DNA of 32,713 nt from an uncultured Streptomycetaceae bacterium (lineage in GTDB: Bacteria; Pseudomonadota; Gammaproteobacteria; Burkholderiales; SG8-41). Numbering within the stretch: the stretch's first letter is position 1; each line of letters opens with the position of its first letter. Below, piece by piece: positions 905 through 32,713 of this stretch. The stretch lies in assembly GCA_964365845.1 (NCBI GenBank), contig CAYIRZ010000002.1, positions 10,240-42,952 of the forward strand, read 5' to 3'. The notes under the pieces were generated by a model. It was not told the origin of the DNA and made no database searches. It saw nothing but the letters and a program-made list of their open reading frames with translations. Made by a program: the position numbers and the translations under genes.

Positions 905-1540
905 TCATGCCGCTCCCGGCTGATCACGTCCATGCCGCCAGCGCAGCGCCGACTGCACGGCGGGGTTGGCGCGCAGCCCCTCCCAGAACGGCAGGGCGCC
1001 GGAGCGATAGAAACTGTCGATCAGCGCGACGGTTTGATCGGGCGTGACTTGAGCCGCGGCGGGTAGCAGCGCCAGTAGCGCGAAAAAGACGACCCACGCG
1101 CCGATCGCAAGACCTTTCCCCACCGGATATTGCATCGGCACTGTGGCGCCCGCCGCAGCCGCCGGCAGGATGCGCCAGCCGATGATGCCGCCGGCAACGA
1201 TTGCGATAATCTGGCCGAGCGAGGTCGGCAATGCGATCACCACCAGCGTGGCGAGGACGGTGAGCGTTATCCGCGGCCGGTCGGGGCACAGGCTTTTCGC
1301 CATGCCCCACACCGCCTGCGAAATGCCGATGGCGATACCGATCTGGCTCGACGCCGGGCCGGGCAGAAACTGGCACAGCGCGACGAGATCGGCATACGAC
1401 TTCTCGTCGAACCAGCGGCGGCGCTTCACGAACTCGTCGCGGAAATAGCCCAGGTGCGCAACCGGGCCGCCGAAAGACGTGAAGCCGAGCCTCAGAAAAA
1501 TCCAGAATACTGCCAACGCCGAAGCTTTTCTTTCCGTCAT
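905..1540 (-). CDS. chrA: chromate transporter (CHR/ChrA family) gene, abnormally short and probably a decayed remnant
   Basis: The 211-aa ORF carries CHR motifs: FLRLGFTSFGGPVAHLGYFRDEFVKRRRW, YADLVALCQFLPGPASSQ, AVWGMAKSLCPDR, FYRSGAL. It is about half the size of typical long-chain ChrA and has no partner half-gene. The motif order suggests internal deletions (see findings). Confidence 0.6.
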   Translation of the reverse strand: MTERKASALAVFWIFLRLGFTSFGGPVAHLGYFRDEFVKRRRWFDEKSYADLVALCQFLPGPASSQIGIAIGISQAVWGMAKSLCPDRPRITLTVLATLVVIALPTSLGQIIAIVAGGIIGWRILPAAAAGATVPMQYPVGKGLAIGAWVVFFALLALLPAAAQVTPDQTVALIDSFYRSGALPFWEGLRANPAVQSALRWRHGRDQPGAA

Positions 1541-1630
1541 GACACGGATCTCCCCGATTTTCCTGTCAGCTCGATGCGTTTTTCAGCCGCCGATTTCAGC
1601 GGGAGCGCACTGCGGATTGGCGAAGCGAAA

Positions 1631-2383: not shown

Positions 2384-3399
2384 GGCTCGAGGCCCTTTAT
2401 GTACGGCATCACGATATGCACTTGGTAGTTGTCATCAGTCACCTTCGTCACGAGGGTGGCTTCGGCGTCGAAATGGAGCTGCAGCCGCTCGCGGATGTTG
2501 CCCAACGCCATTTTGTTGCCGGCGTGGTGGCTGCCCTCGTGCCGGTAAGGGTTGCGCAGCACGGCATGCACCTGCTCGCGGGCGGCATAGATGTCGATGC
2601 TGATGACGCCGGGCTCGCTGCGCGGCTCGATGCCGTGATAAACCGCATTCTCGAGCAGCGGCTGCAGCACCAGCGGCGGGACCAGCGCGTCGCGCGGCAT
2701 CTTGTCGACATGCCACTCGACCCTGAGCCGCTCGCCCAGGCGCAACTGCTCCAGATTGAGGTACTGGCGGCACAGTTCGACTTCGCGCGCCAGCGGCGTC
2801 AACTCCCGGTTGTCCGCCATCAGCACCCGGAACAGGTCCGACATGTCCTCCAGCGCGACTTCGGCGCGCTTCGGGTCCTGGCGTATCAGCGACAGCACGG
2901 CGTTGATGCTGTTGAACAGGAAATGCGGCCGGATGCGGGCCTGCAGCGCCTGCAACCGCGCTTCCGACAGTGCCGGCGACAGCGCGCGGCCGCGCAGGTC
3001 GAAGTAGACCAGCAGCATCACCGTGACGATGAACACCAGCAGCCAATAGCGCTCCAGCGGCGCGAGTTCCGCCGCCAGCAGCGGGCGGCCGGCGGCATAA
3101 AGCAGGGCCGTGAGCGCCAGTTCGAGCGCGACCACCACCAGACTGCCGAGATAATACGGCAGCCGGTTGAGCACGCCGTTGAGCGCCATCAGGGCGATCA
3201 GGCTCAGGATCAGCAGCGGCTCCACCACGGCGGAAATTTCGAGCAGTTCGTTCCACGTCGCGCGCAGCGTCACGCTTTTTACCACCGCGGCGGCAACCGC
3301 GGCCAGGTTCACGATCAGCAGAATGCGCAGCAGAATCCCGAGGTTGCGGAAATTCGGCAGGGCGCTGCCGTAGGCGTTTTGATTTACAATGCCGGTCAT
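2380..3399 (-). CDS. algZ: LytS/AlgZ(FimS)-type sensor histidine kinase
   Basis: 339 aa with hydrophobic N-terminal helices. It has the His_kinase motif [18 protein letters not shown] and the ATPase N-box [11 protein letters not shown]. It is translationally coupled to the LytTR regulator and divergent from argH. Confidence 0.8.
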
Positions 3400-3428: not shown

Positions 3429-4826
3429 GTGAGCAATAAAGACAAATCCAGCGGCAACCCAAAGCCGTGGTCGGGGCGGTTCGTTGAACCGGTGACCGAC
3501 CTCGTCAAGCAATTCACTGCGTCGGTCACCTTCGATCAGCGCCTGGCCGAGTTCGACATCGAGGGCTCCATCGCCCATGCGCGCATGCTTCATGCCGTCG
3601 GCATCCTCGCCAAGGACGATCTCGGCGCCATCGAGAAAGGTCTGGCGCAGATTCTGGACGAGATCCGCGGCGGCAGCTTTCCGTGGTCGATCGATCTCGA
3701 AGATGTGCACCTCAACATCGAACGGCGGCTGACCGATCTCGCCGGCGACGCCGGCAAGCGCCTGCACACCGCGCGCTCCAGGAACGACCAGGTGGCAACC
3801 GACGTGCGGCTTTACCTGCGCGCCTCGATCGACCACGTGCTGACGCTGATCAAGTCGCTGCAGCGCGCCCTGCTCGACCTTGCCGATAAGCACACCGAGA
3901 CCGTGATGCCGGGCTTCACCCATCTGCAGGTCGCGCAGCCGGTATCGTTCGCCCATCACCTGCTCGCTTATTTCGAAATGCTCACGCGCGACGCCCAGCG
4001 ACTTGCTGAATGCCGCAAGCGCGTCAACAAGCTGCCGCTCGGCGCGGCTGCCCTTGCCGGCACCTCATTTCCGATCGACCGCCTGATGGTGGCCAAGGAA
4101 CTGGGGTTCGACGGCGTATGCGAGAACTCGCTCGATGCCGTGTCCGACCGCGACTTCGCGATCGAATTCTGCGCCGGCGCCGCGCTGGTGATGACGCATC
4201 TGTCGCGTTTCTGTGAGGAATTGATCCTGTGGATGAACCCGCGCTTCGGCTTCATCGACATTGCCGACCGCTTCTGCACCGGCTCGTCGATCATGCCGCA
4301 GAAAAAAAACCCCGACGTGGCGGAACTGATTCGCGGCAAGACCGGGCGCGTCAACGGCCACCTGGTGGCGCTGCTGACGCTGATGAAAGCGCAGCCGCTC
4401 GCCTACAACAAGGACAACCAGGAAGACAAGGAGCCGCTGTTCGACACCGTGGACACGCTGATGACGAGCCTCGCGGTGTTCGCCGAGATGCTGGGCGGCA
4501 TCAAGGTCAATCGCGACGCAATGCGCGCGGCGGCACTGCAGGGCTATGCCACCGCCACCGATCTCGCCGACTACCTGGTCAAGAAAGGCGTGCCGTTCCG
4601 CGAAGCGCACGAAGCGGTGGCGCAGGCGGTGCGTTTTGCGGAAACGCGTGGCTGCGGCCTCGCCGACCTCAAACTCTCCGAACTGCAGCAGTTCTCGCCG
4701 CTGATCGGCGAGGACATATTCGAAGCGCTGACCCTTGAAGGCTCGTTGGCCAGCCGCAGCCATATCGGCGGCACCGCGCCGGCGCGGGTGAAGGCAGCGA
4801 TCGCCAAGGCGCGCAAAGGGTTGTAA
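3429..4826 (+). CDS. argH: argininosuccinate lyase
   Basis: 465 aa with a GTG start. Fumarate-lyase superfamily signatures: WSGRF near the N-terminus, [53 protein letters not shown]. Confidence 0.95.
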
Positions 4827-4838
4827 TAGCCAAGAGCA

Positions 4839-5002
4839 TTAGCCGCCGATGAATTCTTCTCAATACCTTCTTTTCAACACCCCCTTGAGGGGTGCGCTTG
4901 ACGGGTACGCCGATAGATTCTTCTCAATACCCGTTCTTTTTAATACCTTCCTTTCAACACCCGCTTGACGGGTGCGCTCGACGGGTACTTGACGGGTACG
5001 CC
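4839..5002 (+). repeat. left arm of the islet-flanking repeat: two tandem units of a ~72-nt hairpin (REP/MITE-like) element
   Basis: Unit 1 is 4839-4911: TTAGCCGCC..TTCTTTTCAACACCCCCTTGAGGGGTGCGCTTGACGGGTACGCC. Unit 2 is 4912-5002, an expanded version. Each has a 6-bp stem CACCCC/GGGGTG; unit 2 reads CACCCG/CGGGTG. The reverse complement matches 8082-8153. Confidence 0.85.
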
Positions 5003-5152
5003 GATGAAAACCCAAGGGTGCGCAGCCAAAGAGCACGGTATCATCGTAACATATTGTTTTATTTGTATTTTTATCTGTCGTAGGTCGGCAATCCTTTGCC
5101 GACAATAAGTAGCGGCGGCATCGCGCCCAAACGCTCAGAACTTTCCTTATGG

Positions 5153-5181
5153 TTGCACCCTATACGCTTGCCGCGTATAGT
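5153..5181 (+). promoter_or_regulatory. sigma70-like promoter TTGCAC-N17-TATAGT with an embedded inverted-repeat operator, upstream of the higB-like gene
   Basis: TTGCAC is at 5153-5158 and TATAGT at 5176-5181. A perfect inverted repeat CTATACGC-TTGCC-GCGTATAG (5160-5180) fills the spacer and the -10. The higB ATG at 5189 is 8 nt after the -10 and has no Shine-Dalgarno. Confidence 0.5.
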
Positions 5182-5188
5182 TAGAGCA

Positions 5189-5509
5189 ATGGTCTTTGTC
5201 GAGCTCACGCCGTTCATCGCTTTTCGTGCTGAGCACTGGAGCGACGAGGATTTGCGTAGCTTGCAAAATTTTTTGCTTGCAACGCCAGACGCAGGCGATG
5301 TCATCCCAGGCGGTTCCGGTTTGCGCAAGCTGCGCTGGTCTGCACAAGGGCGGGGCAAGCGGGGTGGCGCAAGGGTGATCTATTACCGGCATGTGCCGGG
5401 AGAACGCATCTACCTGATTTACGCTTACGTTAAGAGTGCGCAGACTGACCTGACCCGCGAGCAGATCAAAGCGTTGGCACAACTAATGAAGGATACGAAG
5501 AATGGATAA
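5189..5509 (+). CDS. higB: type II toxin, RelE/ParE superfamily, HigB-2-like
   Basis: I trimmed the ORF 5096..5509 to the ATG at 5189 (106 aa). Sequence: MVFVELTPFIAFRAEHWSDEDLRSLQNFLLATPDAGDVIPGGSGLRKLRWSAQGRGKRGGARVIYY...IYLIYAYVKSAQTDLT. This matches the HigB-2 pattern (GGLRKxR...GKRGGxRxIYY). The toxin-first order and 8-nt overlap with the antitoxin are typical of higBA. Confidence 0.8.
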   Translation: MVFVELTPFIAFRAEHWSDEDLRSLQNFLLATPDAGDVIPGGSGLRKLRWSAQGRGKRGGARVIYYRHVPGERIYLIYAYVKSAQTDLTREQIKALAQLMKDTKNG

Positions 5510-5792
5510 GCAACATTTCGACCAACTAGTCAAAGGTGTGCGCGAAATGAAGCGCCATATGACAGGCAAATCCGTGCGTGGCGTAAGAACGACCGAACTG
5601 CCTGCGCCTGACGTGCGCACCATCCGCGAGGCGGCCAATATCAGCCAGAGCCAGTTCGCGAAATTGATTGGCGTAAACCTGCGCACGCTGCAAAACTGGG
5701 AGCAGCAACGCACGCAGCCCAGCGGGCCCGCCAGGGCGCTGCTCAAGATCGTTGCTTCAAACCCGAAGGCGATTGAGGCGTTGCATGGGTAA
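5502..5792 (+). CDS. higA: type II antitoxin, XRE-type helix-turn-helix, HigA-2-like
   Basis: 96 aa. HTH segment: IREAANISQSQFAKLIGVNLRTLQNWEQQRTQPSGPARALLKIVASNP. It resembles HigA-2 (SQSKFA...LRNWEQGRRxPTGPAKALL). It overlaps the toxin gene. Confidence 0.8.
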   Translation: MDKQHFDQLVKGVREMKRHMTGKSVRGVRTTELPAPDVRTIREAANISQSQFAKLIGVNLRTLQNWEQQRTQPSGPARALLKIVASNPKAIEALHG

Positions 5793-5799
5793 ATCTGAA

Positions 5800-5829
5800 T
5801 TGCCGCCTCATGCGGCGCCCGGTTATCAT
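5800..5829 (+). promoter_or_regulatory. possible promoter TTGCCG-N18-TATCAT for the antitoxin/PIN pair
   Basis: The hexamers are at 5800-5805 and 5824-5829. A strong RBS, AAGGAGG, lies 7 nt before the ATG at 5911. This is weak, sequence-only evidence. Confidence 0.25.
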
Positions 5830-5910
5830 GTGGGGGTCGTATTTCAAATGTGCGCCACCGCCTAAAAGCAGGCCACCAGTGACCCGGCTGGTTCTTAAGG
5901 AGGTTATACC

Positions 5911-6159
5911 ATGACAACGATTCAGATCGAGTTGCCTGATGCGACCGCGAATGCCGCGCGCGATGCCGGGCTACTCACGCCGCACGCGCTGGAGCGGCTG
6001 ATCAACGATGCGCTTCGACGCAAGCAGGCGGCCGACTCGTTGCTGTCCATTGCCGACCGCGTGGCCGCCGCCGGTATCCCGCCGATGTCGATGGAAGAGA
6101 TCAACGCGGAGGTGACGGCCGCACGCGCAGAGCGCAAACAGCGTGCGGGCGGTCATTGA
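5911..6159 (+). CDS. putative antitoxin partner of the PIN toxin (small acidic/helical protein, family not assigned)
   Basis: 82 aa. A consensus RBS AAGGAGG lies 7 nt upstream. It overlaps the downstream PIN gene by 17 nt. Its size and position are typical of a type II antitoxin. Confidence 0.6.
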   Translation: MTTIQIELPDATANAARDAGLLTPHALERLINDALRRKQAADSLLSIADRVAAAGIPPMSMEEINAEVTAARAERKQRAGGH

Positions 6160-6562
6160 TACGAATGTGCTGCTGTCCGGGCTGCTGTGGCGTGGCGCGC
6201 CGTATGCGCTGATTGAGCATGTGCAGGCTGGCACGCTCGCCATGGTCAGCAGCCCGGCGCTGTTGGCCGAACTGGCCGAGGTGATCAGCCGCGCAAAGTT
6301 CGATGCGATCCTGGCGCGCTCGAACACCTCGCGCGAGCGCTCCCTGGATGAGATGCGCCAAATGGCCGAAGTGATCGTGCCGCCGCCGTTGCCACAACCG
6401 GTGTGCCGCGATCCCGACGACGATCACGTGCTTGCATGCGCCCTGGCCGCTAAGGCCGATCTCATCGTTACGGGCGATGCCGACCTTCTCAATCTGCGCG
6501 AGTATCAGGGTATTCGCATCGTCGCCGCCGTCGAGGCGCTACGCCTCATCGAGCGCGCCTGA
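6143..6562 (+). CDS. PIN-domain toxin (stand-alone PIN family of the VIDTNVLxS type)
   Basis: 139 aa with a GTG start. Sequence: MRAVIDTNVLLSGLLWRGAPYALIEHV...SPALLAELAEVISRAKF...DPDDDHVLACALAAKADLIVTGDADLL. The acidic PIN residues are in the expected order (DTN, E, D, TGD). Confidence 0.8.
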   Translation: MRAVIDTNVLLSGLLWRGAPYALIEHVQAGTLAMVSSPALLAELAEVISRAKFDAILARSNTSRERSLDEMRQMAEVIVPPPLPQPVCRDPDDDHVLACALAAKADLIVTGDADLLNLREYQGIRIVAAVEALRLIERA

Positions 6563-6588
6563 GAGCGTGCAATTATCGGAAGGTCAAG

Positions 6589-6741
6589 ATCAGCCAGAGC
6601 CAGTTCGCGAAATTGATTGGCGTAAACCTACGCACGCTGCAAAACTGGGAGCAGCAACGCACGCAGCCGACCGGGCCCGCCAGGGCGCTGCTCAAGATCG
6701 TTGCTTTAAACCGGAAGGCGATTGAGGCCTTGCACGGATAA
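6589..6741 (+). pseudogene. 5'-truncated second copy of the higA 3' half
   Basis: 153 nt align with 5640-5792 with 8 mismatches (manual alignment). The frame is preserved: ISQSQFAKLIGVNLRTLQNWEQQRTQPTGPARALLKIVALNRKAIEALHG*. There is no N-terminal third, no ATG and no partner toxin. Confidence 0.8.
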
Positions 6742-6898
6742 ATCTGGCCTGTCTCCGATCGAGCGAAACGTGGCTAGTCTCCAAAGGCGCTCCAAGTATA
6801 ATTTTCCGGAAATGTGACCCGTGATGACTATACAAGGGCGGGAAAACGCAGCGATGGGGGCGGAAGGATGAAGGCCCCTAAAGGATACATTTCATTTA

Positions 6899-7942
6899 AT
6901 GAAGGATGAGCGCGGAGAGGTGATGCAGCTCGAATTCCTTGGGAAGCTGCAGCGCATCCTGAACGAAGGCCAGTTCACGGCGAGTTACAAGTACGCGCTG
7001 ATACTCGCAATTGCCGAGTTGAGCGTTGAAAAGACCAACTGCGAAGACGGCAGCCTGCATCTGCCACTCGAAGAAATCGCGGATCGCTTCATCGGGCTCT
7101 ACTGGCGGCAGGCGGCGCCGTTCGCCGGCAGATCTTTCCTCCACCAGAACGCAGGCCAACAGGCAAGTGTCGTTACAAAGATCCGAGGATTACAGGGGCG
7201 CGTGCCGACACTGTCTGCAGCTCGCCGTCATCGAGAGTGGCCTACGCTGGTTCGCTCGATCGCGCGCTTGCTGGTTCAAATGCCGCTGTGGAGGCTGCAG
7301 CGCGTTGGCGCTGACAAGCTGGATTTCCTTTACGAGGAGACGATCATCGATGAGGGGATTGTTCTGCGCCCCGGCATCGCCGACTGCTTCCGGCAACAGT
7401 TCACCGTGGTACAGGCGCTGGTGCAGATGGTGTGGCTGTCATTCATCCAGCGGCTCCCGGCTAATCGCCCAGTGCTGGGATCTACAGGGGATCTCGCCGA
7501 TTTTCTTTTCGGGAGTGAGCGGAGCGGACTCTCGGCCATCGTTAGCGGGCTGCGCGACCTGCAGAACGGCGAGTGTTTCTACTGCCAGGGACGCCTGCAG
7601 CAGACGGTCGAGGTGGACCACTTCATCCCCTGGTCACGCTATCCGCGCGATCTCGGGCATAACTTCGTGCTCGCGCATGGCTCATGTAATCAGGACAAGC
7701 GCGACATGCTTGCCGCTCCGGTACATCTCGCGCGCTGGGTCGAGCGGAACGACAACGATAACGCTGCGTTGCGGCAGATCTTCGACGAAGCCCGCTTCAT
7801 GTACGACACGGACGCGTCGCTCACTGTCGCCGAGTGGTCCTACGACACCGCTGAGCGGTCAGGCGCGCTCGTGTGGGTCCAGAAGAGAGGGCAAACCGCT
7901 CGGCTCACGCCGGAGTGGCGGCGGCTGTTCCTTGCCGTGTGA
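6899..7942 (+). CDS. HNH (His-Me finger) endonuclease-domain protein with an unassigned ~225-aa N-terminal domain
   Basis: 347 aa. An alternative start is the ATG at 6923, preceded by GGAGAGG. HNH motif at residues 226-267 (nt 7574-7699): CFYCQGRL...VEVDHFIPWSRYPRDLGHNFVLAHGSCNQDKRD. I recognise no family for the N-terminal part (QFTASYKYALILAIAELS...). Confidence 0.75.
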   Translation: MKDERGEVMQLEFLGKLQRILNEGQFTASYKYALILAIAELSVEKTNCEDGSLHLPLEEIADRFIGLYWRQAAPFAGRSFLHQNAGQQASVVTKIRGLQGRVPTLSAARRHREWPTLVRSIARLLVQMPLWRLQRVGADKLDFLYEETIIDEGIVLRPGIADCFRQQFTVVQALVQMVWLSFIQRLPANRPVLGSTGDLADFLFGSERSGLSAIVSGLRDLQNGECFYCQGRLQQTVEVDHFIPWSRYPRDLGHNFVLAHGSCNQDKRDMLAAPVHLARWVERNDNDNAALRQIFDEARFMYDTDASLTVAEWSYDTAERSGALVWVQKRGQTARLTPEWRRLFLAV

Positions 7943-8081
7943 TATGGATGCTTTGACGGCTCTTAGCAGCCCTGAAAGAGCTGTGAGTCATAAAGTCGCG
8001 AGATCGTAAGAGGATTTTCCTTCGCCCTCCCGCGCTCACGCTCTCCCGTCCTCAGTTATTTTTTGTTTTTCTTGGCGCCTT

Positions 8082-8153
8082 GGCGTACCCGTCGAGCGCA
8101 CCCCTCAAGGGGATGTTGAAAAGAAGGTATTGAAAAGAAGCCTTGGCGGCTAA
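8082..8153 (-). repeat. right arm of the islet-flanking repeat (inverted copy of 4839-4911)
   Basis: The reverse complement reads TTAGCCGCCAAGGCTTCTTTTCAATACCTTCTTTTCAACATCCCCTTGAGGGGTGCGCTCGACGGGTACGCC. The outer 9 nt are identical to the left arm. The 44-nt core differs at 2 positions. Confidence 0.85.
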
Positions 8154-8187
8154 ATGGGGTTCAACACACATTTTCTATGGCGGGCGC

Positions 8188-9240
8188 TCAGATCGACAGT
8201 TTCTTCTCCAGTCCGGTTTCGCGGGCAATGCGCTTAAGATCGGCGCATGTATCCCCGGGCAACGCCAACCCTTGCTTGCGATTTTCCGCGTCGTTGCGCG
8301 CTTCCATCTCGCCCGGATAGAAAATTTCATCGCAGCCCTTGGCGAGCGGCACCGATTTCAGTTCGCCGATGAACGCCTGCATGCGCTGGTGAAACTGCGC
8401 CAGCGGCTGAAATGCCTCGATGTTCATCGCGATCATCATGTGTCCGCAGTTGCTCTTCTCGGCGGTCTTGTAGGGGCTGCGCACGGCGGACAGAAAGCCG
8501 CTGCCGGTCAGCACGCCGGACATCATGTCGACCATCGCCGCAATGGCGTAGCCCTTGTGTCCGGCCATCGGCAGGATGATGCCATCGATCGCTTCCTGCG
8601 GATCGGTGGTGGGCTCGCCCGCCGCGTTGATCGCCCAGCCTTCCGGGATGGGCTGGCGCTTGTTGCGGGCAAGATAGATCTTGCCGCGCGCGACGCCGGT
8701 GTTCGCCATGTCCACGCAGAATGGCGGAAGACTCCCGGCCGGTGCCGCGATAGACCACGGATTGGTACCGATGATTTTCTTGCGGCCGCCCCAAGGCGCC
8801 ATCGCCGGACCGCCGTTGCTGGTGAGCAGCATCACGCAGCCCTCGCGCGCGCCCGCCATCGTGTAATACATGCACGTGCCGAAGTGGTTGGAATTGCGCA
8901 CGCCCACAGCGCCTATGCCGTGTGTCTTCGCGCGCTTGACGGCTTCCCGCATGGCAAGCCGCGTCAGCACCTGTCCGACACCGTCATGACCATCAATCAC
9001 CGCGATCGCGCCGGCATCGACCACAAACTCGGGCTGCGTCACAGGCTGCATCACCCCGTTGCGCAAGCGTTCCCAGTACCAGCCGAGGCGCAGTACGCCG
9101 TGCGACTGATGCCCCCACAGGTCGGCCTGCACCAGCGTATCGGCGAGCAGGCGCGCATCGGATTCGGGCACGCCCTCGCCGGCATACACTGACGCCGCGA
9201 AATCGACAAGGCGCACCGGATCAATCAGGGATGTCGTCAT
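8188..9240 (-). CDS. Ldh_2-family (malate/L-lactate/L-sulfolactate-type) NAD(P)-dependent 2-hydroxyacid dehydrogenase
   Basis: I trimmed the track ORF 8188..9363 to the ATG at 9240 (350 aa): MTTSLIDPVRLVDF...LWGHQSHGVLRL...VRNSNHFG...GTNPWSIAAP...MANTGVARGKI...PMAGHKGYAIA. The 41 upstream codons run into a LacI pseudogene fragment and are Arg/Cys-rich noise. Confidence 0.8.
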   Translation of the reverse strand: MTTSLIDPVRLVDFAASVYAGEGVPESDARLLADTLVQADLWGHQSHGVLRLGWYWERLRNGVMQPVTQPEFVVDAGAIAVIDGHDGVGQVLTRLAMREAVKRAKTHGIGAVGVRNSNHFGTCMYYTMAGAREGCVMLLTSNGGPAMAPWGGRKKIIGTNPWSIAAPAGSLPPFCVDMANTGVARGKIYLARNKRQPIPEGWAINAAGEPTTDPQEAIDGIILPMAGHKGYAIAAMVDMMSGVLTGSGFLSAVRSPYKTAEKSNCGHMMIAMNIEAFQPLAQFHQRMQAFIGELKSVPLAKGCDEIFYPGEMEARNDAENRKQGLALPGDTCADLKRIARETGLEKKLSI

Positions 9241-9268
9241 GATTTCAGTCGCTTCCCATCGCTCACGA

Positions 9269-9420
9269 TTAAAAATGTAGGGTCGGGACCGCGGGCGCCG
9301 CCGTCGTGCCGCGCACGACGAGTTCGACCGGCAATTCGGTCCGCAGCGGCACGGTATCGCCATTCAGTCGCGCGAGCAAGCGCAGCGCGGCTTAGTCACC
9401 AAGTTCGGCGGCGGGGAAAC
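9269..9420 (-). pseudogene. 3' fragment of a LacI-family regulator paralog (in-frame stop, N-terminus missing)
   Basis: Minus-strand translation: FPAAELGD*AALRLLARLNGDTVPLRTELPVELVVRGTTAAPAVPTLHF*. It aligns with the C-terminus of the intact LacI-family gene at 10787-11815: FPTTELGAYAAHHLLSRLTGKSVDLHTELPVELVVRGTTAPPPQ*. Confidence 0.75.
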
Positions 9421-9422
9421 GT

Positions 9423-9509
9423 CAACGCACGCAGCCCACCGGGCCCGCCAGTGTGCTGCTCAAGATCGTTGCTTCAAACCAAAAGGCGATTGAGGCGTTG
9501 CACGAATAA
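9423..9509 (+). pseudogene. third, shorter 5'-truncated copy of the higA 3' end
   Basis: 87 nt align with 5706-5792 with 8 mismatches: QRTQPTGPASVLLKIVASNQKAIEALHE*. It directly abuts the LacI fragment (junction 9420/9421). Confidence 0.75.
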
Positions 9510-9609
9510 TTCCGAATGCATTGCAATCGGCCGGGCGCAGGCGCAATATGCTCTGGACGTGGTGCTCGGTGGCACGTAACCAGCGCCAGACCATCGCCAT
9601 CGGCCAGGC

Positions 9610-10608
9610 GTGCGAAAAGAGGCAGGAGTGAAGCCGGTTTTACGTATCGGTGTTACCGCAGGATTCGCCGCCGCGCTGGTGATGGCAGCGCCTCACGCCG
9701 CAGCGCAGGCGGGGGCGTGGCCCAGCAAGCCGATCCGGATGATCGTCTCCTCGGGAGCGGGCGGCGGCCTGGACCTTGTCGCACGTCTCGCCGCGGCCCC
9801 GATTGCGGAGGCGCTGAAGCAGAACGTGGTGGTGGACAACCGCCCCGGCGCGAGCGGCAGTATCGCCGCCGAGCTCATCGCGCAGGCTTTGCCGGACGGT
9901 TACACATTCATGGTGTTGAGCGCGAGTCTCGTGGTGTACGGCGTGGTCAACAAGACGCGCTACGATCTTTATCGCGACTTCGATGCGGTGGCCCAGATCG
10001 CTGCCAGCCCCTACATCCTCACCGTCACGCCGTCGCTGCCGGTGAAATCGGTGAAAGAGCTCATCGCGTACGCCAAAGCAAACCCGGGCAAGCTCAATTT
10101 CGCGTCGACCGGCCCGTCATCGCTCGCCCATCTTGCGGGGGAGCTTTTCGGGATCACGACCGGAACGCAACTGGTGCACGTGCCTTACAAGGGCGTCGGC
10201 GCCGCGCTGCCGGACATGATTTCGGGCCGCACGCAAATGAGTTTCCTGAGCGGCGGTTCGGTATCCGTGCAGATCAGGAATGAGAATCTGAAGCCGCTCG
10301 CCGTCGCCGGGACGAACCGCGCGAAGTCGATGCCCAATGTGCCGACGATGGTCGAGTCGGGCGTGCCGGGCTTCGTGGTGACGCAGTGGCACGGCGTGGT
10401 GACGCCCCGCGGTACGCCGCGCGCCATCATCGAGCGGATGCATCAGGAGATCGCGAAGGCGGTTCAGCGGCCCGAGGTCGCATCGCGCCTGGCGCAGGAC
10501 GGCACCGAAGGCGTAGGCAGCTCGCCGAAGGAATTCGCCGCATTCTTAAGGTCCGAGCGCGACCAGTGGGCCAAGGTCGCCAAGGCGGCGAATATCCGCA
10601 GCAAGTAG
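9610..10608 (+). CDS. Bug-family (TctC-like) tripartite tricarboxylate transporter substrate-binding protein
   Basis: 332 aa with a signal peptide (AAPHAAAQA). Typical Bug motifs: PSKPIRMIV, VVVDNRPGASG, DGYT, NFASTGPSSLAHL, VPYKGVGAALPDMISGR. An alternative GTG start is at 9628. No TctA/TctB genes are nearby. Confidence 0.85.
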   Translation: MRKEAGVKPVLRIGVTAGFAAALVMAAPHAAAQAGAWPSKPIRMIVSSGAGGGLDLVARLAAAPIAEALKQNVVVDNRPGASGSIAAELIAQALPDGYTFMVLSASLVVYGVVNKTRYDLYRDFDAVAQIAASPYILTVTPSLPVKSVKELIAYAKANPGKLNFASTGPSSLAHLAGELFGITTGTQLVHVPYKGVGAALPDMISGRTQMSFLSGGSVSVQIRNENLKPLAVAGTNRAKSMPNVPTMVESGVPGFVVTQWHGVVTPRGTPRAIIERMHQEIAKAVQRPEVASRLAQDGTEGVGSSPKEFAAFLRSERDQWAKVAKAANIRSK

Positions 10609-10786
10609 CCGGTGCGCTACATCGCAACTGGTGTCAATGTAAACACGCGAGCAAGCCGGGCCGCGCTCTTGGTGTCTCCGCGACGCAGGGCTTCCCGAAC
10701 ATCGTCCAGTTTGTAAGTGTCTTTTGGTTTGTTTTTCCTTTGCGTTCCTTCGCGGCCTTCGCGTTCCCGCTTTTCCGGCGAAGCCT

Positions 10787-11815
10787 CTACTGCGGCGGCG
10801 GCGCCGTCGTGCCGCGCACCACCAGCTCCACCGGCAACTCGGTGTGCAGGTCCACGCTCTTGCCCGTTAGCCGCGACAGCAGGTGATGGGCGGCGTAGGC
10901 GCCGAGTTCGGTGGTCGGGAAATGCATGGTGGTCAGCCCGGGCGTCATCAGCGACGCGATTTCCATGTCATCAAAACCGGTGATCGATACCTGCTGCGGG
11001 ATGGTAATGCCCTGCGCGTTGCATTCCGCCATCGCGCCGATCGCCAGCACGTCGTTGCCGCAGATCACGGCGGTCGGCAGCGCATCCCCGATCATGACTT
11101 CGCGCAAGCCTTCACGCCCGGCGGACAGCGTGAACGGCTTTTCCACGATGCGCGCAGCCGGAAGCCGCGCGCCGCGCGCGGCGATCGCTTCGCGCACGCC
11201 CTCACGCCTTTCCTTGGCGCGCTCGTTGTTGGCGGTAATGCCGGAAATCATCGCGAACTCGCAGTGCCCGAGATCGAGCAGATAATTGGCAAGACGGATT
11301 GCCGCCGTGCGGCTGTTGAAACCGACACAGGGATGCCGGCCGCTTTCATCCAGCGCCCAAGTGAGCACGTACGGGATCTGGTGCGACTCGATTGCCCGGA
11401 ACACGCTCGGGTCGTGCGTCGTGCCGAGCAGCACCAGGCCGTCGATGCCACGCTCGATCAGCGCGCGCGTCGCGCGCACTTCGACGTCGGCATTGAACTC
11501 GTGGGACGCCAGCAGCAGCATGTAGCCGGCCTCGTCCAGCGTCTTCTGCAAGGCGTGAATGGTGTTGGCGAATATTGCGTTGTTGAGCGTCGGAATCACC
11601 GCGCCGATGGTGCGGGTACGCCGCGAGGCGAGCGCGCGCGCCGCACCGTGCGCGACATAGCCCAGCGTCTGCACTGCCTGCCGCACCCGGCTCAGGGTGA
11701 GCGGCTTCACCTTGTGCGGTACCGTCAGCGCCCGCGACACCGTCGCGGTGGAAACCTTGGCGAGCCGCGCCACGTCGCTCAGTTTTGCGGTCTTCCTGGG
11801 CGTATTTTTCTTCAC
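10787..11815 (-). CDS. LacI-family transcriptional regulator
   Basis: 342 aa. N-terminal HTH: KLSDVARLAKVSTATVSRALTVPHKVKPLTLSRVRQAVQTLGYVAHGAARALASRRT. This is followed by a periplasmic-binding-protein-like sugar-binding fold. Confidence 0.9.
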   Translation of the reverse strand: MKKNTPRKTAKLSDVARLAKVSTATVSRALTVPHKVKPLTLSRVRQAVQTLGYVAHGAARALASRRTRTIGAVIPTLNNAIFANTIHALQKTLDEAGYMLLLASHEFNADVEVRATRALIERGIDGLVLLGTTHDPSVFRAIESHQIPYVLTWALDESGRHPCVGFNSRTAAIRLANYLLDLGHCEFAMISGITANNERAKERREGVREAIAARGARLPAARIVEKPFTLSAGREGLREVMIGDALPTAVICGNDVLAIGAMAECNAQGITIPQQVSITGFDDMEIASLMTPGLTTMHFPTTELGAYAAHHLLSRLTGKSVDLHTELPVELVVRGTTAPPPQ

Positions 11816-11890
11816 GGTATCAAGGGACGGGAATGGGCAAGGTTGAGCCTAACAACTCCGGGTATCCGTCGCAAGCACGTGGCAGGCAAT

Positions 11891-17822: not shown

Positions 17823-17865
17823 TTTCATTTCAGGAGTTCGTCGGGGCTAAGTCCGACAAACTCCT
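17823..17865. repeat. REP-like hairpin element, copy 1 (TTTCATTTCAGGAGTTCGTCGG-GGCTAAGT-CCGACAAACTCCT)
   Basis: This 43-nt element differs at 2 positions from 21771-21813. It has a 12-bp stem (one mismatch here) and an 8-nt loop. It overlaps the stop codon of the dehydrogenase gene. Confidence 0.8.
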
Positions 17866-18859
17866 AAGCGGAGCGTTCGTTCAGCAGCGTCTCGCCCCGC
17901 GCCCACCTGGCCAGATTGGTGAGAAACACTTCAGCGGCACGGTGCTCGTTGCCGGCCGAGGCCGAAGCGTTATGCGGCGTGACGAGCACATTGGGCAAAT
18001 CCCACAACGGCGAATCGGACGGCAGCGGCTCCTTTTCGAACACGTCGAGGTAAGCGCCGCCAAGATGCCCGCTTTGCAACGCATCGGTCAGCGCTTGCTG
18101 GTCGGCAACACCGCCGCGTGCAACATTGATGATATGGGCGCCCTTGGGCAATAAGGCAAGGGTCCCGGCATTGACGAGATGCCGCGTTGCGGCGGTGAGC
18201 GGACAGGCGAGCACCAGCCAGTCGCAGCGCGGCAACACTTCGGGCAGCGCCGCGAGCGTATGCATTTCATCGACCGGATCGCCGGACTGCATGGGACGCC
18301 GGCGCACGCCGATGACGTGCATTCCCAGTGCCTGGCAGAAGCGCGCCACGGTCGCCCCTATCGTCCCCAGCCCGATGACGGAGACGGTTTGCCCGCGCAG
18401 ATCCCTGGGTACCGCGGAGCCGCGCATCGGCTCCCAGGCGCGGCGGCGTTGCGCGTCTATCCAGCGCGGAAATCCGCGCGCGAGCATCAGCAGGCCGCAA
18501 ATCGCGGTCTGCGCCACCGGCTCGCCGTTAGTGCCGGCCGAGGTGGTGAGCCTGACACCGCGCTCGATCAACGCCGGCAGGAAAGGATGCTGATCGATGC
18601 CGGTGCTGACGAAATGCACCCATTTGAGATTGCGGGCGGCGGCGACCGCGGCGCCAAAACCGTGATAATGCTCCGAGAAGCGGATATCGCGCGTGAGATA
18701 GGCGATCCCGATACGCTCGCAATCCGCGGCTGAAAGCCGGCCTCGGGGATCGTCGGGAAGGTGGACGATGTCGGTTTGGAGTCCAGCCTGCCGCGCGGCG
18801 GCGGCAAGCCTGTCGCCGTAATTGGCGGCGAATCCCTGCGACAGCAGCATGCCGGTCAT
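17864..18859 (-). CDS. D-isomer-specific 2-hydroxyacid dehydrogenase family, NAD-binding
   Basis: I trimmed the track ORF to the ATG at 18859 (331 aa); GGAGG lies 6 nt upstream. It has the Rossmann motif VIGLGTIGATVA and the catalytic-region motifs NVARGG, LDVFEKEP, TPHNAS. The upstream 44 codons read through the heptamer and REP repeats. Confidence 0.85.
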   Translation of the reverse strand: MTGMLLSQGFAANYGDRLAAAARQAGLQTDIVHLPDDPRGRLSAADCERIGIAYLTRDIRFSEHYHGFGAAVAAARNLKWVHFVSTGIDQHPFLPALIERGVRLTTSAGTNGEPVAQTAICGLLMLARGFPRWIDAQRRRAWEPMRGSAVPRDLRGQTVSVIGLGTIGATVARFCQALGMHVIGVRRRPMQSGDPVDEMHTLAALPEVLPRCDWLVLACPLTAATRHLVNAGTLALLPKGAHIINVARGGVADQQALTDALQSGHLGGAYLDVFEKEPLPSDSPLWDLPNVLVTPHNASASAGNEHRAAEVFLTNLARWARGETLLNERSA

Positions 18860-18877: not shown

Positions 18878-18912
18878 GTGAAGGGTGAAGGGTGAAGGGT
18901 GAAGAGTGAACC
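18878..18912. repeat. heptanucleotide tandem repeat (GTGAAGG)x3 plus two degenerate units, just upstream of the dehydrogenase RBS
   Basis: GTGAAGG GTGAAGG GTGAAGG GTGAAGA GTGAACC. It is followed by a REP-like CCCTCACCCCGAC...CTCTCCCCC-N7-GGGGGAGAG hairpin (about 18911-18978). Confidence 0.8.
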
Positions 18913-21720: not shown

Positions 21721-21813
21721 AGCAGCCTGTCGGACTTGGCTCCATTCGCCGGAACCCGTAGCGTTAGTGCTTTCATTTTAGGAGTTTGTCGGGGCTAAGT
21801 CCGACAAACTCCT
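21721..21813. repeat. composite REP-like cluster: AGCAGCCTGTCGGACTTGGC...element (21721-21763) plus hairpin element copy 2 (21771-21813)
   Basis: 21781-21812 is a perfect 12-bp stem GGAGTTTGTCGG / CCGACAAACTCC with an 8-nt loop. The reverse complement of 32589-32632 matches 21721-21763; the first 20 nt are identical. Confidence 0.8.
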
Positions 21814-21898
21814 ACCAAAACGATAGCATGAGGGAAGACATTCCGCTAATCCGGCGGCAATGGCATAATCATGGGTCTATCTCACGATCCGGACTCAT

Positions 21899-32588: not shown

Positions 32589-32632
32589 GCGTACCCGTTC
32601 CGGTGAATGGGGGCCAAGTCCGACAGGCTGCT
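32589..32632 (-). repeat. REP-like element, inverted copy of 21721-21763
   Basis: The reverse complement reads AGCAGCCTGTCGGACTTGGCCCCCATTCACCGGAACGGGTACGC. Its first 20 nt are identical to 21721-21740. It shares GCGTACCCGT with the islet-flanking repeat. Confidence 0.7.
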
Positions 32633-32713
32633 TGGGCAGATAAACAGGCTATTCGATAATGGAAACGGCCGCATTTCAAGAATCGTGATGAATGCCGAAC
32701 TATCGCGTACCGG

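Follow-up and report, generated by a model that had tools for sequence, protein, structure and literature searches.

Inverted hairpin repeats around a toxin-antitoxin and nuclease islet downstream of argH are probably REP-like copies beside a gene hotspot

Downstream of the argininosuccinate lyase gene argH in an uncultured member of the Burkholderiales, a small islet of toxin-antitoxin and nuclease genes lies between two inverted copies of a short, hairpin-bearing repeat. The DNA analysed, referred to throughout as the window, is the whole stretch of 32,713 nucleotides (nt) taken from contig CAYIRZ010000002.1, and the two repeat copies (the arms) occupy positions 4839–5004 and 8064–8153. The reading that we favour, with a probability of roughly 0.7, is that the arms are repeats resembling repetitive extragenic palindromic (REP) sequences or bacterial interspersed mosaic elements (BIMEs), located at the 3′ ends of argH and of a gene for a LacI-family regulator, two core genes that converge, with a patchwork gene hotspot between them. 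This reading is carried by four direct observations, namely the anatomy of the repeat, its dispersal among related genomes, the orthology of the arms with copies at the same site in relatives, and the positions of the islet junctions. An earlier note on the window, made from the sequence alone, had proposed instead that the inverted pair delimits or mobilizes the islet, a proposal that did not survive comparison with the relatives.

The longest inverted repeat detected in the window by a repeat search pairs 4854–4911 with 8082–8139, a length of 58 nt at 95% complementarity. A 40-nt core, allowing up to two mismatches, occurs nowhere in the window but in the two arms and gave no match in any of 100 dinucleotide-preserving shuffles, and the outer sequence TTAGCCGCC is common to both arms. 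The earlier note was therefore correct about the shared outer 9 nt and the nearly identical inner core, and also about a second, expanded tandem unit following the left arm, where 4934–4988 is a direct repeat of 4854–4908 at 89% identity. Its claim that the arms align end to end holds over the 58 nt but not strictly, because TTAGCCGCC is joined to the core by GATGAA on the left but by AAGGC on the right, a stretch of 5–6 nt that the arms do not share.

In all copies, including those described below from other genomes, the repeat follows the layout X-(A)1-5-hairpin-(B)1-5-X, with a fixed order of motifs and variable numbers of units. X is a flank word of 7–9 nt that is often itself in tandem and is the same on both sides of each copy. 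The A unit is 14 nt long (TTCTTTTCAATACC, 1–5 copies) and the B unit 13 nt (CTTGACGGGTRCG, 1–5 copies), while the 6-bp hairpin, with the consensus YACCCS-N5-SGGGTR (YACCCS-CTTGA-SGGGTR), is built from the last A unit and the first B unit. The first left unit (4839–4911, plus strand) thus consists of TTAGCCGCC, the flank word GCCGATGAA, two 14-nt A units, the hairpin CACCCC-CTTGA-GGGGTG, and B units, with the first three bases of GCCGATGAA overlapping the end of TTAGCCGCC. The second, expanded left unit (4912–5004, plus strand) has the flank word GCCGATAGA, three A units, the hairpin CACCCG-CTTGA-CGGGTG, three B units, and the flank word GCCGATGAA. The right repeat (8064–8153, minus strand) comprises TTAGCCGCC, the flank word GCCAAGG, two A units, the hairpin CATCCC-CTTGA-GGGGTG, two B units, and the flank words GCCAAGGCGCCAAG, so that the arms differ in flank word, GCCGATGAA on the left and GCCAAGG on the right. 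Each arm is preceded by the stop codon of a gene and shares that gene's sense direction; the pair looks inverted because argH and the LacI-family gene are convergent.

The same site was compared in contigs of relatives whose ArgH homologues are 90–95% identical to that of the window; the closest of them, designated L017 and L021, have ArgH identities of 95% and 94%, respectively. Upstream synteny is complete, encompassing heme genes, a histidine kinase/LytTR pair, and argH, and downstream synteny resumes at the genes for the LacI-family regulator and a thiamine pyrophosphate (TPP) enzyme, from window position 10794 onwards. What lies between varies. L017 and L021 carry a fructosamine kinase gene together with a minimal right copy of the repeat (one A and one B unit, or 1A+1B) that adjoins the LacI stop; this copy, TTAGCCGCCGAGG-TTCTTTTCAATACCCC-TTTGA-GGGGTA-CGCCAAG, lies directly before that stop and has the orientation of the right arm of the window. 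L018 and L041 carry a fructosamine kinase gene and a truncated left copy directly after argH (TTTTAACCGCCGATGAATTCTTTTTAATAC), while L022 and L023 carry the kinase gene with no repeat. In L019 and L020, the gap holds only a gene for an Ldh_2-family dehydrogenase, 84 nt after argH, again with no repeat. Finally, in L024, argH and the LacI-family gene are 255 nt apart with no gene between them, and inverted arrays of a flank word, (GCCGCCAAG)n, are found at both gene ends. The same pair of flanking genes therefore encloses no gene, a fructosamine kinase gene, an Ldh_2 gene, or, in the window, a patchwork of ~6 kb with both arms, as in a hotspot. The islet itself was found at the argH–LacI gap in no relative examined. 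The genes between the arms are accessory, as described earlier.

Both arms are orthologous to copies in these islet-free relatives. The right repeat corresponds to the 1A+1B copy of L017 and L021 and to the array of L024, and its unit number ranges from 2A+2B in the window through 1A+1B in L017 to an array alone in L024. The left cluster is an insertion relative to L017 and L021, with homology resuming at the flank word. That arms stand at the same positions in L017, L018, L021, L024, and L041, all of them lacking the islet, argues directly against an inverted pair that delimits or mobilizes it. Moreover, the variable region extends 2.6 kb past the right arm, to 10793: window positions 8188–10793 are missing from this site in L017 and L021, and, of the ten relative loci in which the argH–LacI gap was read, eight lack the Ldh_2 gene there. 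The earlier placement of the repeats at the borders with core genes consequently stands for argH, which is conserved, but not for the Ldh_2 gene, which is itself variable. A further contig, L042, with an ArgH 92% identical to that of the window, ends at position 6857, 7 nt past the argH stop, and an assembly break at a repeat at this position would explain the contig end.

The junctions of the islet lie inside the arms, in DNA that is unique and ancestral. On the argH side, an AT-rich stretch and a hairpin, GTCGGCAA-TCCT-TTGCCGAC, make up 5005–5121 (plus strand); this segment matches 7870–7976 of L017, directly after argH, and also the spacer between the kinase and LacI genes in L018 (12414–12479) and L041 (2652–2717). 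On the LacI side, the ancestral spacer is represented by 8026–8077 (plus strand), of which 8026–8054 is 97% identical to L018 12612–12640 and L041 2850–2878, where these sequences abut the LacI stop, and 8055–8077 matches L024 10402–10424. The pieces 5058–5121 and 8026–8054 are 2.9 kb apart in the window versus 132 nt in a single spacer of L018 and L041, and the block of higBA-like, PIN, and HNH genes has therefore entered unique DNA inside the arms. In the comparison of the interval downstream of argH among relatives, put forward earlier as a means of finding an empty site, L018 and L041 show such a site, 132 nt long.

The junctions fall ~120 nt inside the left arm and 30–55 nt inside the right arm and are free of repeats, which, together with the variable DNA 2.6 kb beyond the right arm, speaks against the pair as the boundary of the islet. 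Nor do the arms resemble mobile ends, as their flank words differ and no target-site duplication was found around the bracket (CCAAGAGCA precedes TTAGCC... on the left, and ATGGGGTTC follows ...GGCTAA on the right). The perfect 8-bp hairpin GTCGGCAA-TCCT-TTGCCGAC mentioned above is found at 5081–5111 of the window, 7946–7976 of L017, and 12437–12479 of L018. It has been kept across relatives even though it is placed differently with respect to the fructosamine kinase gene, and it may represent a further small repeat or else the terminator of argH.

A scan of species-representative genomes with a 25-nt core of the repeat identified 16 stretches, none of which is the window's own locus. Thirteen of these are in one metagenome-assembled genome (MAG), Burkholderiales bacterium C1_concoct.bin.24, and the remaining three are distributed one each among three other uncultured Betaproteobacteria/Burkholderiales assemblies. 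A relaxed motif scan, then run on the 8-kb loci found, added four further minimal (1A+1B) copies within the same loci, which brings the total for one related Burkholderiales MAG to at least 17 copies in the ~104 kb sampled. The expectation of a structured, genome-wide repeat family was thereby confirmed; the decamer at 32589–32632, which had been assigned to the family, proved to be a lone 10-mer beside a different hairpin family and no copy of the present repeat. An unrelated second family of REP-like hairpins, AGGAGTTTGTCGGGGCTAAGTCCGACAAACTCCT, occurs in the window at 803–846, 17823–17866, 21771–21814, and 32610–32642, as well as in two related assemblies (L012 4058–4110 and L016 3065–3118).

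In the related MAG, no copy of the repeat lies within a gene-like open reading frame (ORF), as judged by a crude ORF call based on GC content at third codon positions. The 20 ORFs that flank 11 of the copies all have a Pfam match and are all ordinary genes, including those for a TPP enzyme, Crp, HpcH aldolase, TctC receptors, hydrolases, SelO, a pepA-holC pair, thiolase, MsrB, aat, an SMC-type protein, MgtC, and 3-hydroxyisobutyrate dehydrogenase, along with one ORF6N-domain neighbour. By Pfam, none of the 20 is a toxin-antitoxin, defence, or transposase gene. A tie between the repeat and boundaries of variable gene content is thus contradicted in this MAG, where the checked copies lie between ordinary genes; copies scattered over intergenic sites, the outcome set beforehand as refuting, are what a related genome contains. 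The flank words fall into a few classes that vary between loci, namely GCCGATGAA, GCCAAGG, CACAGAG/CACGGAG/ACGAAGG, and CACGAAT/GAACCAC, and they frequently form tandem arrays on both sides of the module. Roughly 8–10 copies are co-oriented with the upstream gene (about eight come in sense after a stop codon), 3–4 are antisense, and one lies between divergent genes.

Neighbouring copies within 8 kb are direct in L002, L003, and L014 and inverted in L001, L012, and the window, and therefore the inverted arrangement is not special to accessory DNA. In L001, a locus of the related MAG, copies at 3070–3179 (plus strand) and 6618–6646 (minus strand) form an inverted pair 3.4 kb apart around a Crp-type regulator, a TctC receptor, and an HpcH aldolase, from which it follows that such brackets arise without accessory cargo. 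In L012, copies at 1222–1270 (plus strand) and 1378–1545 (minus strand) form a tight inverted doublet around an AT-rich spacer of ~110 nt that contains no gene; this doublet has the polarity of the window pair and resembles a REPIN, the inverted REP doublet with spacer. Apart from it, every copy is either a singlet or more than 2.5 kb away from its closest neighbour, and distant pairs are direct as often as inverted. No match to the repeat core was found in viral contigs. The family is, in sum, a lineage-specific intergenic mosaic repeat that is dispersed and modular. It has no Rfam match, as no part of the window matched Rfam at the gathering threshold, and no description of it was found in a brief literature search.

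The hairpin is the conserved heart of the repeat. Among 21 distinct copies, drawn from the window and 17 other loci, all 126 of 126 stem cells are paired. The innermost stem pair is G-C in 17 copies and C-G in four, while at the outer pair U.G, C-G, and U-A occur but C.A does not; the observed pairing and covariation scores were reached by none of 500 shuffles. The compensatory change that had been noticed between the window copies is therefore real and general, and the element is a palindrome with compensatory changes, as expected of REPs and BIMEs. U.G pairs are tolerated on the A-to-B strand only. Because these would be A.C mismatches on the other strand, the hairpin would be active in nucleic acid that is single-stranded and has the A-to-B sense, for instance as a 3′-untranslated region (3′-UTR) stem-loop.

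Several more specific roles were considered and set aside. Whole repeat regions of 118–184 nt folded no better than shuffled sequence (z = -0.4 and -0.7), and these non-significant scores rule out a long structured RNA and leave the 6-bp hairpin alone as conserved. An intrinsic terminator was likewise rejected, since neither arm overlaps a terminator-like site and the hairpin is not followed by a U-run on one strand or the other. A strictly strand-specific 3′-UTR element does not hold as a rule, given 3–4 Pfam-verified antisense contexts and one divergent promoter region.

Turning to the genes, the content described earlier was confirmed throughout. To the left, argH (3429–4826, plus strand; Pfam Lyase_1 and ASL_C2) is the conserved flank and is syntenic in all relatives. 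Within the bracket, a RelE/HigB-type toxin gene (5189–5509, plus strand; Pfam PF06296, E = 3e-7) is followed by a full-length gene for a helix-turn-helix antitoxin of the HigA/MqsA/NadS-like kind (5502–5792, plus strand; Pfam HTH_3, NCBIfam NadS/MqsA-type). A small ORF (5911–6159, plus strand) matches no family and, from gene architecture only, is a putative antitoxin gene, as it lies upstream of and overlaps a PIN_3 toxin gene (6143–6562, plus strand; Pfam PF13470, E = 1e-22; TIGR00305). Both pairs have the layout of type II toxin-antitoxin modules, the PF06296 toxin and HTH_3 genes overlapping by 8 nt and the small ORF and PIN_3 gene by 17 nt. A first higA 3′ relic (6582–6746, plus strand) is a 165-nt direct repeat of 5633–5797 at 94% identity, and a stand-alone HNH endonuclease gene (6899–7942, plus strand; Pfam HNH_4/HNH) completes the islet. 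The scan of window ORFs revealed no transposase or integrase. With inverted repeats, no integrase, and internal direct repeats that are higA gene fragments, the islet is not an integron cassette array.

Beyond the right arm, the Ldh_2-family dehydrogenase gene (8188–9240, minus strand; Pfam Ldh_2, E = 5e-120) belongs to the variable region and follows argH in L019 and L020 only. It is succeeded by a 157-nt 3′ fragment of a second, diverged LacI-family gene (9263–9419, minus strand), collinear with L019 12558–12714; within it, 9294–9419 is 75% identical to 10797–10922, the 3′ end of the window's own full LacI-family gene. The Ldh_2–LacI fragment block, collinear as in L019 and L020, looks like an import from a more divergent lineage. 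A second higA 3′ relic (9418–9509, plus strand), recognized by alignment, lies outside the inverted-repeat bracket, so that the higA 3′ end is present in three direct copies, the intact gene (5633–5797) and the two relics (94% and ~90% identical), the third being fused to the LacI 3′ fragment at 9419. These three ends suggest repeated overwriting of higBA-type modules. Next come a TctC-family solute receptor gene (9610–10608, plus strand; Pfam TctC), missing from this gap in all relatives by synteny, and a short-repeat array, (CGAAGG)n (10735–10793, minus strand), that is without A or B units and adjoins the stop of the full LacI-family regulator gene (10794–11848, minus strand). The latter is the conserved right flank, syntenic in L017, L018, and L019, with Pfam LacI/Peripla_BP matches on its orthologues.

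The HNH gene has homologues (55–91% identical) at 16 metagenome loci, L025–L040, where similarity is confined to the ORF and the neighbours are unrelated; no copy of the repeat was found near the homologues at any of these 16 loci. As the HNH homologues occur in unrelated contexts and without the repeat, the higBA/PIN/HNH block is a patchwork rather than a unit. The 347-residue HNH protein has a conserved N-terminal portion of ~220 residues that matches no family, and its gene recurs as a single-gene insert in many metagenome contigs from soil and groundwater. Assignment to a known defence system was not supported, because NCBIfam and PADLOC returned generic HNH-domain matches only. A plasmid or phage origin was also rejected, since 4827–8187 has no match in the plasmid collection and the repeat core none in viral contigs. 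At the very start of the window, positions 3–64 are a C-rich low-complexity run with a poly-C tract of ~36 nt, which may be an assembly or contig-end artefact.

In the reading that we favour, the arms would be two independent copies of the mosaic repeat, one placed after the argH stop and the other originally after the stop of the convergent LacI-family gene, with unit numbers that came to differ between orthologous copies through replication slippage. Small modules, namely a higBA-like pair, an antitoxin/PIN pair, the HNH gene, the Ldh_2 gene with the LacI 3′ fragment, and the TctC gene, would have been stacked in and beside the ancestral spacer, leaving behind the three higA 3′ ends and two LacI 3′ ends. 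Turnover of this cargo would probably have proceeded via recombination in the conserved flanking genes or via illegitimate joins, and not via transposition of the bracket.

Several points weigh against this account. The copy number and contexts of the repeat are known from relatives and not from the window's own genome, and the route by which the cargo entered is one that we infer. Copies tend only slightly, and not significantly, to share the orientation of the upstream gene (~8–10 versus 3–4 antisense). Both window arms carry the rarer C-G inner stem pair together with a CAACA variant, which could reflect a common origin or gene conversion between the arms. Finally, the convergent polarity recurs in the tight doublet of L012 and the inverted arrays of L024, and the doublet may therefore be a real unit that attracts insertions.

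This last point leads to an alternative in which the two arms descend from a single REPIN-like inverted doublet that once filled a short argH–LacI spacer, its hairpin- and AT-rich centre being favoured for illegitimate insertion; cargo would then gather because of the repeat but would not travel with it. Such a landing pad is consistent with the tight L012 doublet of the same polarity and its AT-rich spacer of ~110 nt, with the inverted flank-word arrays at both ends of the 255-nt cargo-free spacer of L024, with the several different cargoes in the same gap among relatives, and with the definition of REPINs as inverted REP doublets with a spacer (PMC3116915). We nevertheless regard it as unlikely, given that most copies in the related MAG are singlets beside ordinary genes, that L019, L020, L022, and L023 hold cargo in the gap without any repeat, and that the variable DNA at 8188–10793 of the window is outside the arms. 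A proposal in which the repeat is the active party concerns the A-B hairpin module itself, which could be a tiny mobile element that inserts into, or generates, heptamer arrays, so that the flank word found identically on either side would have arisen by duplication of the target and the arms would be recent independent insertions. Every copy does have the same 7–9-nt word on both sides, with words that differ between loci; orthologous arrays without the A-B module exist in L024 and in the window's LacI 3′ flank (10735–10793); and the left cluster was inserted relative to L017 and L021, with homology resuming at the flank word. Random targets are not what is seen, however, as the flank words belong to few recurrent classes, one of which, TTARCCGCC + GATGAA, is common to at least four independent loci. 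Moreover, the words mostly form tandem arrays already on either side of the module, and the differences in unit number among orthologues have the look of slippage, all of which makes this proposal very improbable. That the A-B hairpin module, with its frame of matching heptamer-type arrays, is an undescribed kind of small bacterial repeat that transposes specifically into, or seeds, short tandem arrays, and whose inverted doublets at convergent gene ends serve as landing pads for toxin-antitoxin and nuclease genes, is a decidedly doubtful possibility.

The notion closest to the earlier proposal is that the pair forms the ends of an element like a miniature inverted-repeat transposable element (MITE) or a mobile insertion cassette, with the toxin-antitoxin and HNH genes as passengers and a transposase, e.g., a REP-associated tyrosine transposase (RAYT), supplied in trans. 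A 58-nt inverted repeat at 95% with a shared outer TTAGCCGCC, accessory content between the arms with no transposase there, and a multi-copy repeat family would all be expected of it. Its central premise is contradicted by the presence of both ends in relatives without the islet, and ancestral spacer DNA separates each arm from the cargo. A target-site duplication is absent (CCAAGAGCA and ATGGGGTTC at the outer edges), and the flank words differ between the arms, which would not be expected if these were both termini of a transposed element. Within a single unit, the outermost bases do not form an inverted repeat; HNH homologues occur elsewhere without the repeat, and nothing similar was found in plasmids or viral contigs. 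It is accordingly hard to credit, and two REP-like copies around a gene hotspot remain the preferred reading.

Among known systems, REP and BIME elements, such as the REPs of Escherichia coli and Pseudomonas and the NIME/dRS3 arrays of Neisseria, provide the nearest parallel. The window repeat shares with them a short, conserved, imperfect palindrome, many dispersed copies per genome (as counted in the related MAG), a strictly intergenic position in every copy examined, often beside gene 3′ ends, and a mosaic build in which several short motifs keep a fixed order while the unit numbers vary. It differs in its lack of similarity to any Rfam family, in a hairpin of just 6 bp that is embedded between tandem 14-nt and 13-nt units, and in its frame of locus-specific, heptamer-like arrays that are direct and not inverted. 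MITEs and mobile insertion cassettes are inverted repeats that bracket passenger genes with no transposase between them, and the window has the same outward form; it departs from them in that its arms pre-exist without cargo and do not mark the extremities of a unit that comes and goes as a whole, its cargo junctions lie inside the arms, and a target-site duplication is missing. Minimal mobile elements are gaps between two conserved genes that hold different whole-gene cassettes by strain and no mobility genes. The argH–LacI gap, with its different cassettes in relatives and its lack of mobility genes, appears to behave as a hotspot of this type, although its cargo is layered and includes relics of earlier modules. 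Elements of this kind are those of Neisseria (Saunders and Snyder 2002, as cited in PMC1538595). Their cassettes are exchanged by transformation and flanking homology; the cargo of the window may have been exchanged through the conserved flanks or joined illegitimately.

REPIN-RAYT systems (PMC3116915, PMC3337134) resemble the present family in a palindromic repeat with compensatory stem changes and in the occasional inverted doublet with a ~110-nt spacer, as in L012. Copies here are mostly singlets, however, with neighbours direct as often as inverted, and the "doublet" of the window is 3.1 kb apart; with one tight doublet among the copies seen, doublets do not outnumber singlets as they do for REPINs. 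Intergenic arrays of heptamer direct repeats, including the cyanobacterial STRR and the TAACTGA repeats of the Beggiatoaceae (PMC4679880), have their counterpart in the intergenic tandem 7–9-nt arrays found here, e.g., (CACGAAT)n, (CACAGAG)n, (GCCAAGG)n, and (GTGAAGG)4.7. The unit here is locus-specific and not one genome-wide heptamer, and the arrays frame a conserved hairpin module. The last-named array, 4.7 tandem copies of the heptamer at 18878–18910 in the putative 5′ region of a 2-hydroxyacid dehydrogenase gene of the window, is of the same type as the short arrays that frame the repeat elsewhere.

The main lesson of this locus is that inverted repeats around accessory genes need not signify a mobile cassette, however tempting that conclusion may be. 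It offers a worked example in which lineage-specific REP-like repeats stand at the 3′ ends of convergent core genes while, by other means, small defence-type modules come and go in the intervening spacer. The modular build of the repeat, with matching short-repeat arrays, 14-nt units, a hairpin, and 13-nt units, is unusual. The repeat might be useful for recognizing this uncultured Burkholderiales lineage, and the way in which tandem units expand around its hairpin would make a small case study. Neither use would be a major surprise, and the striking bracket has an ordinary explanation.

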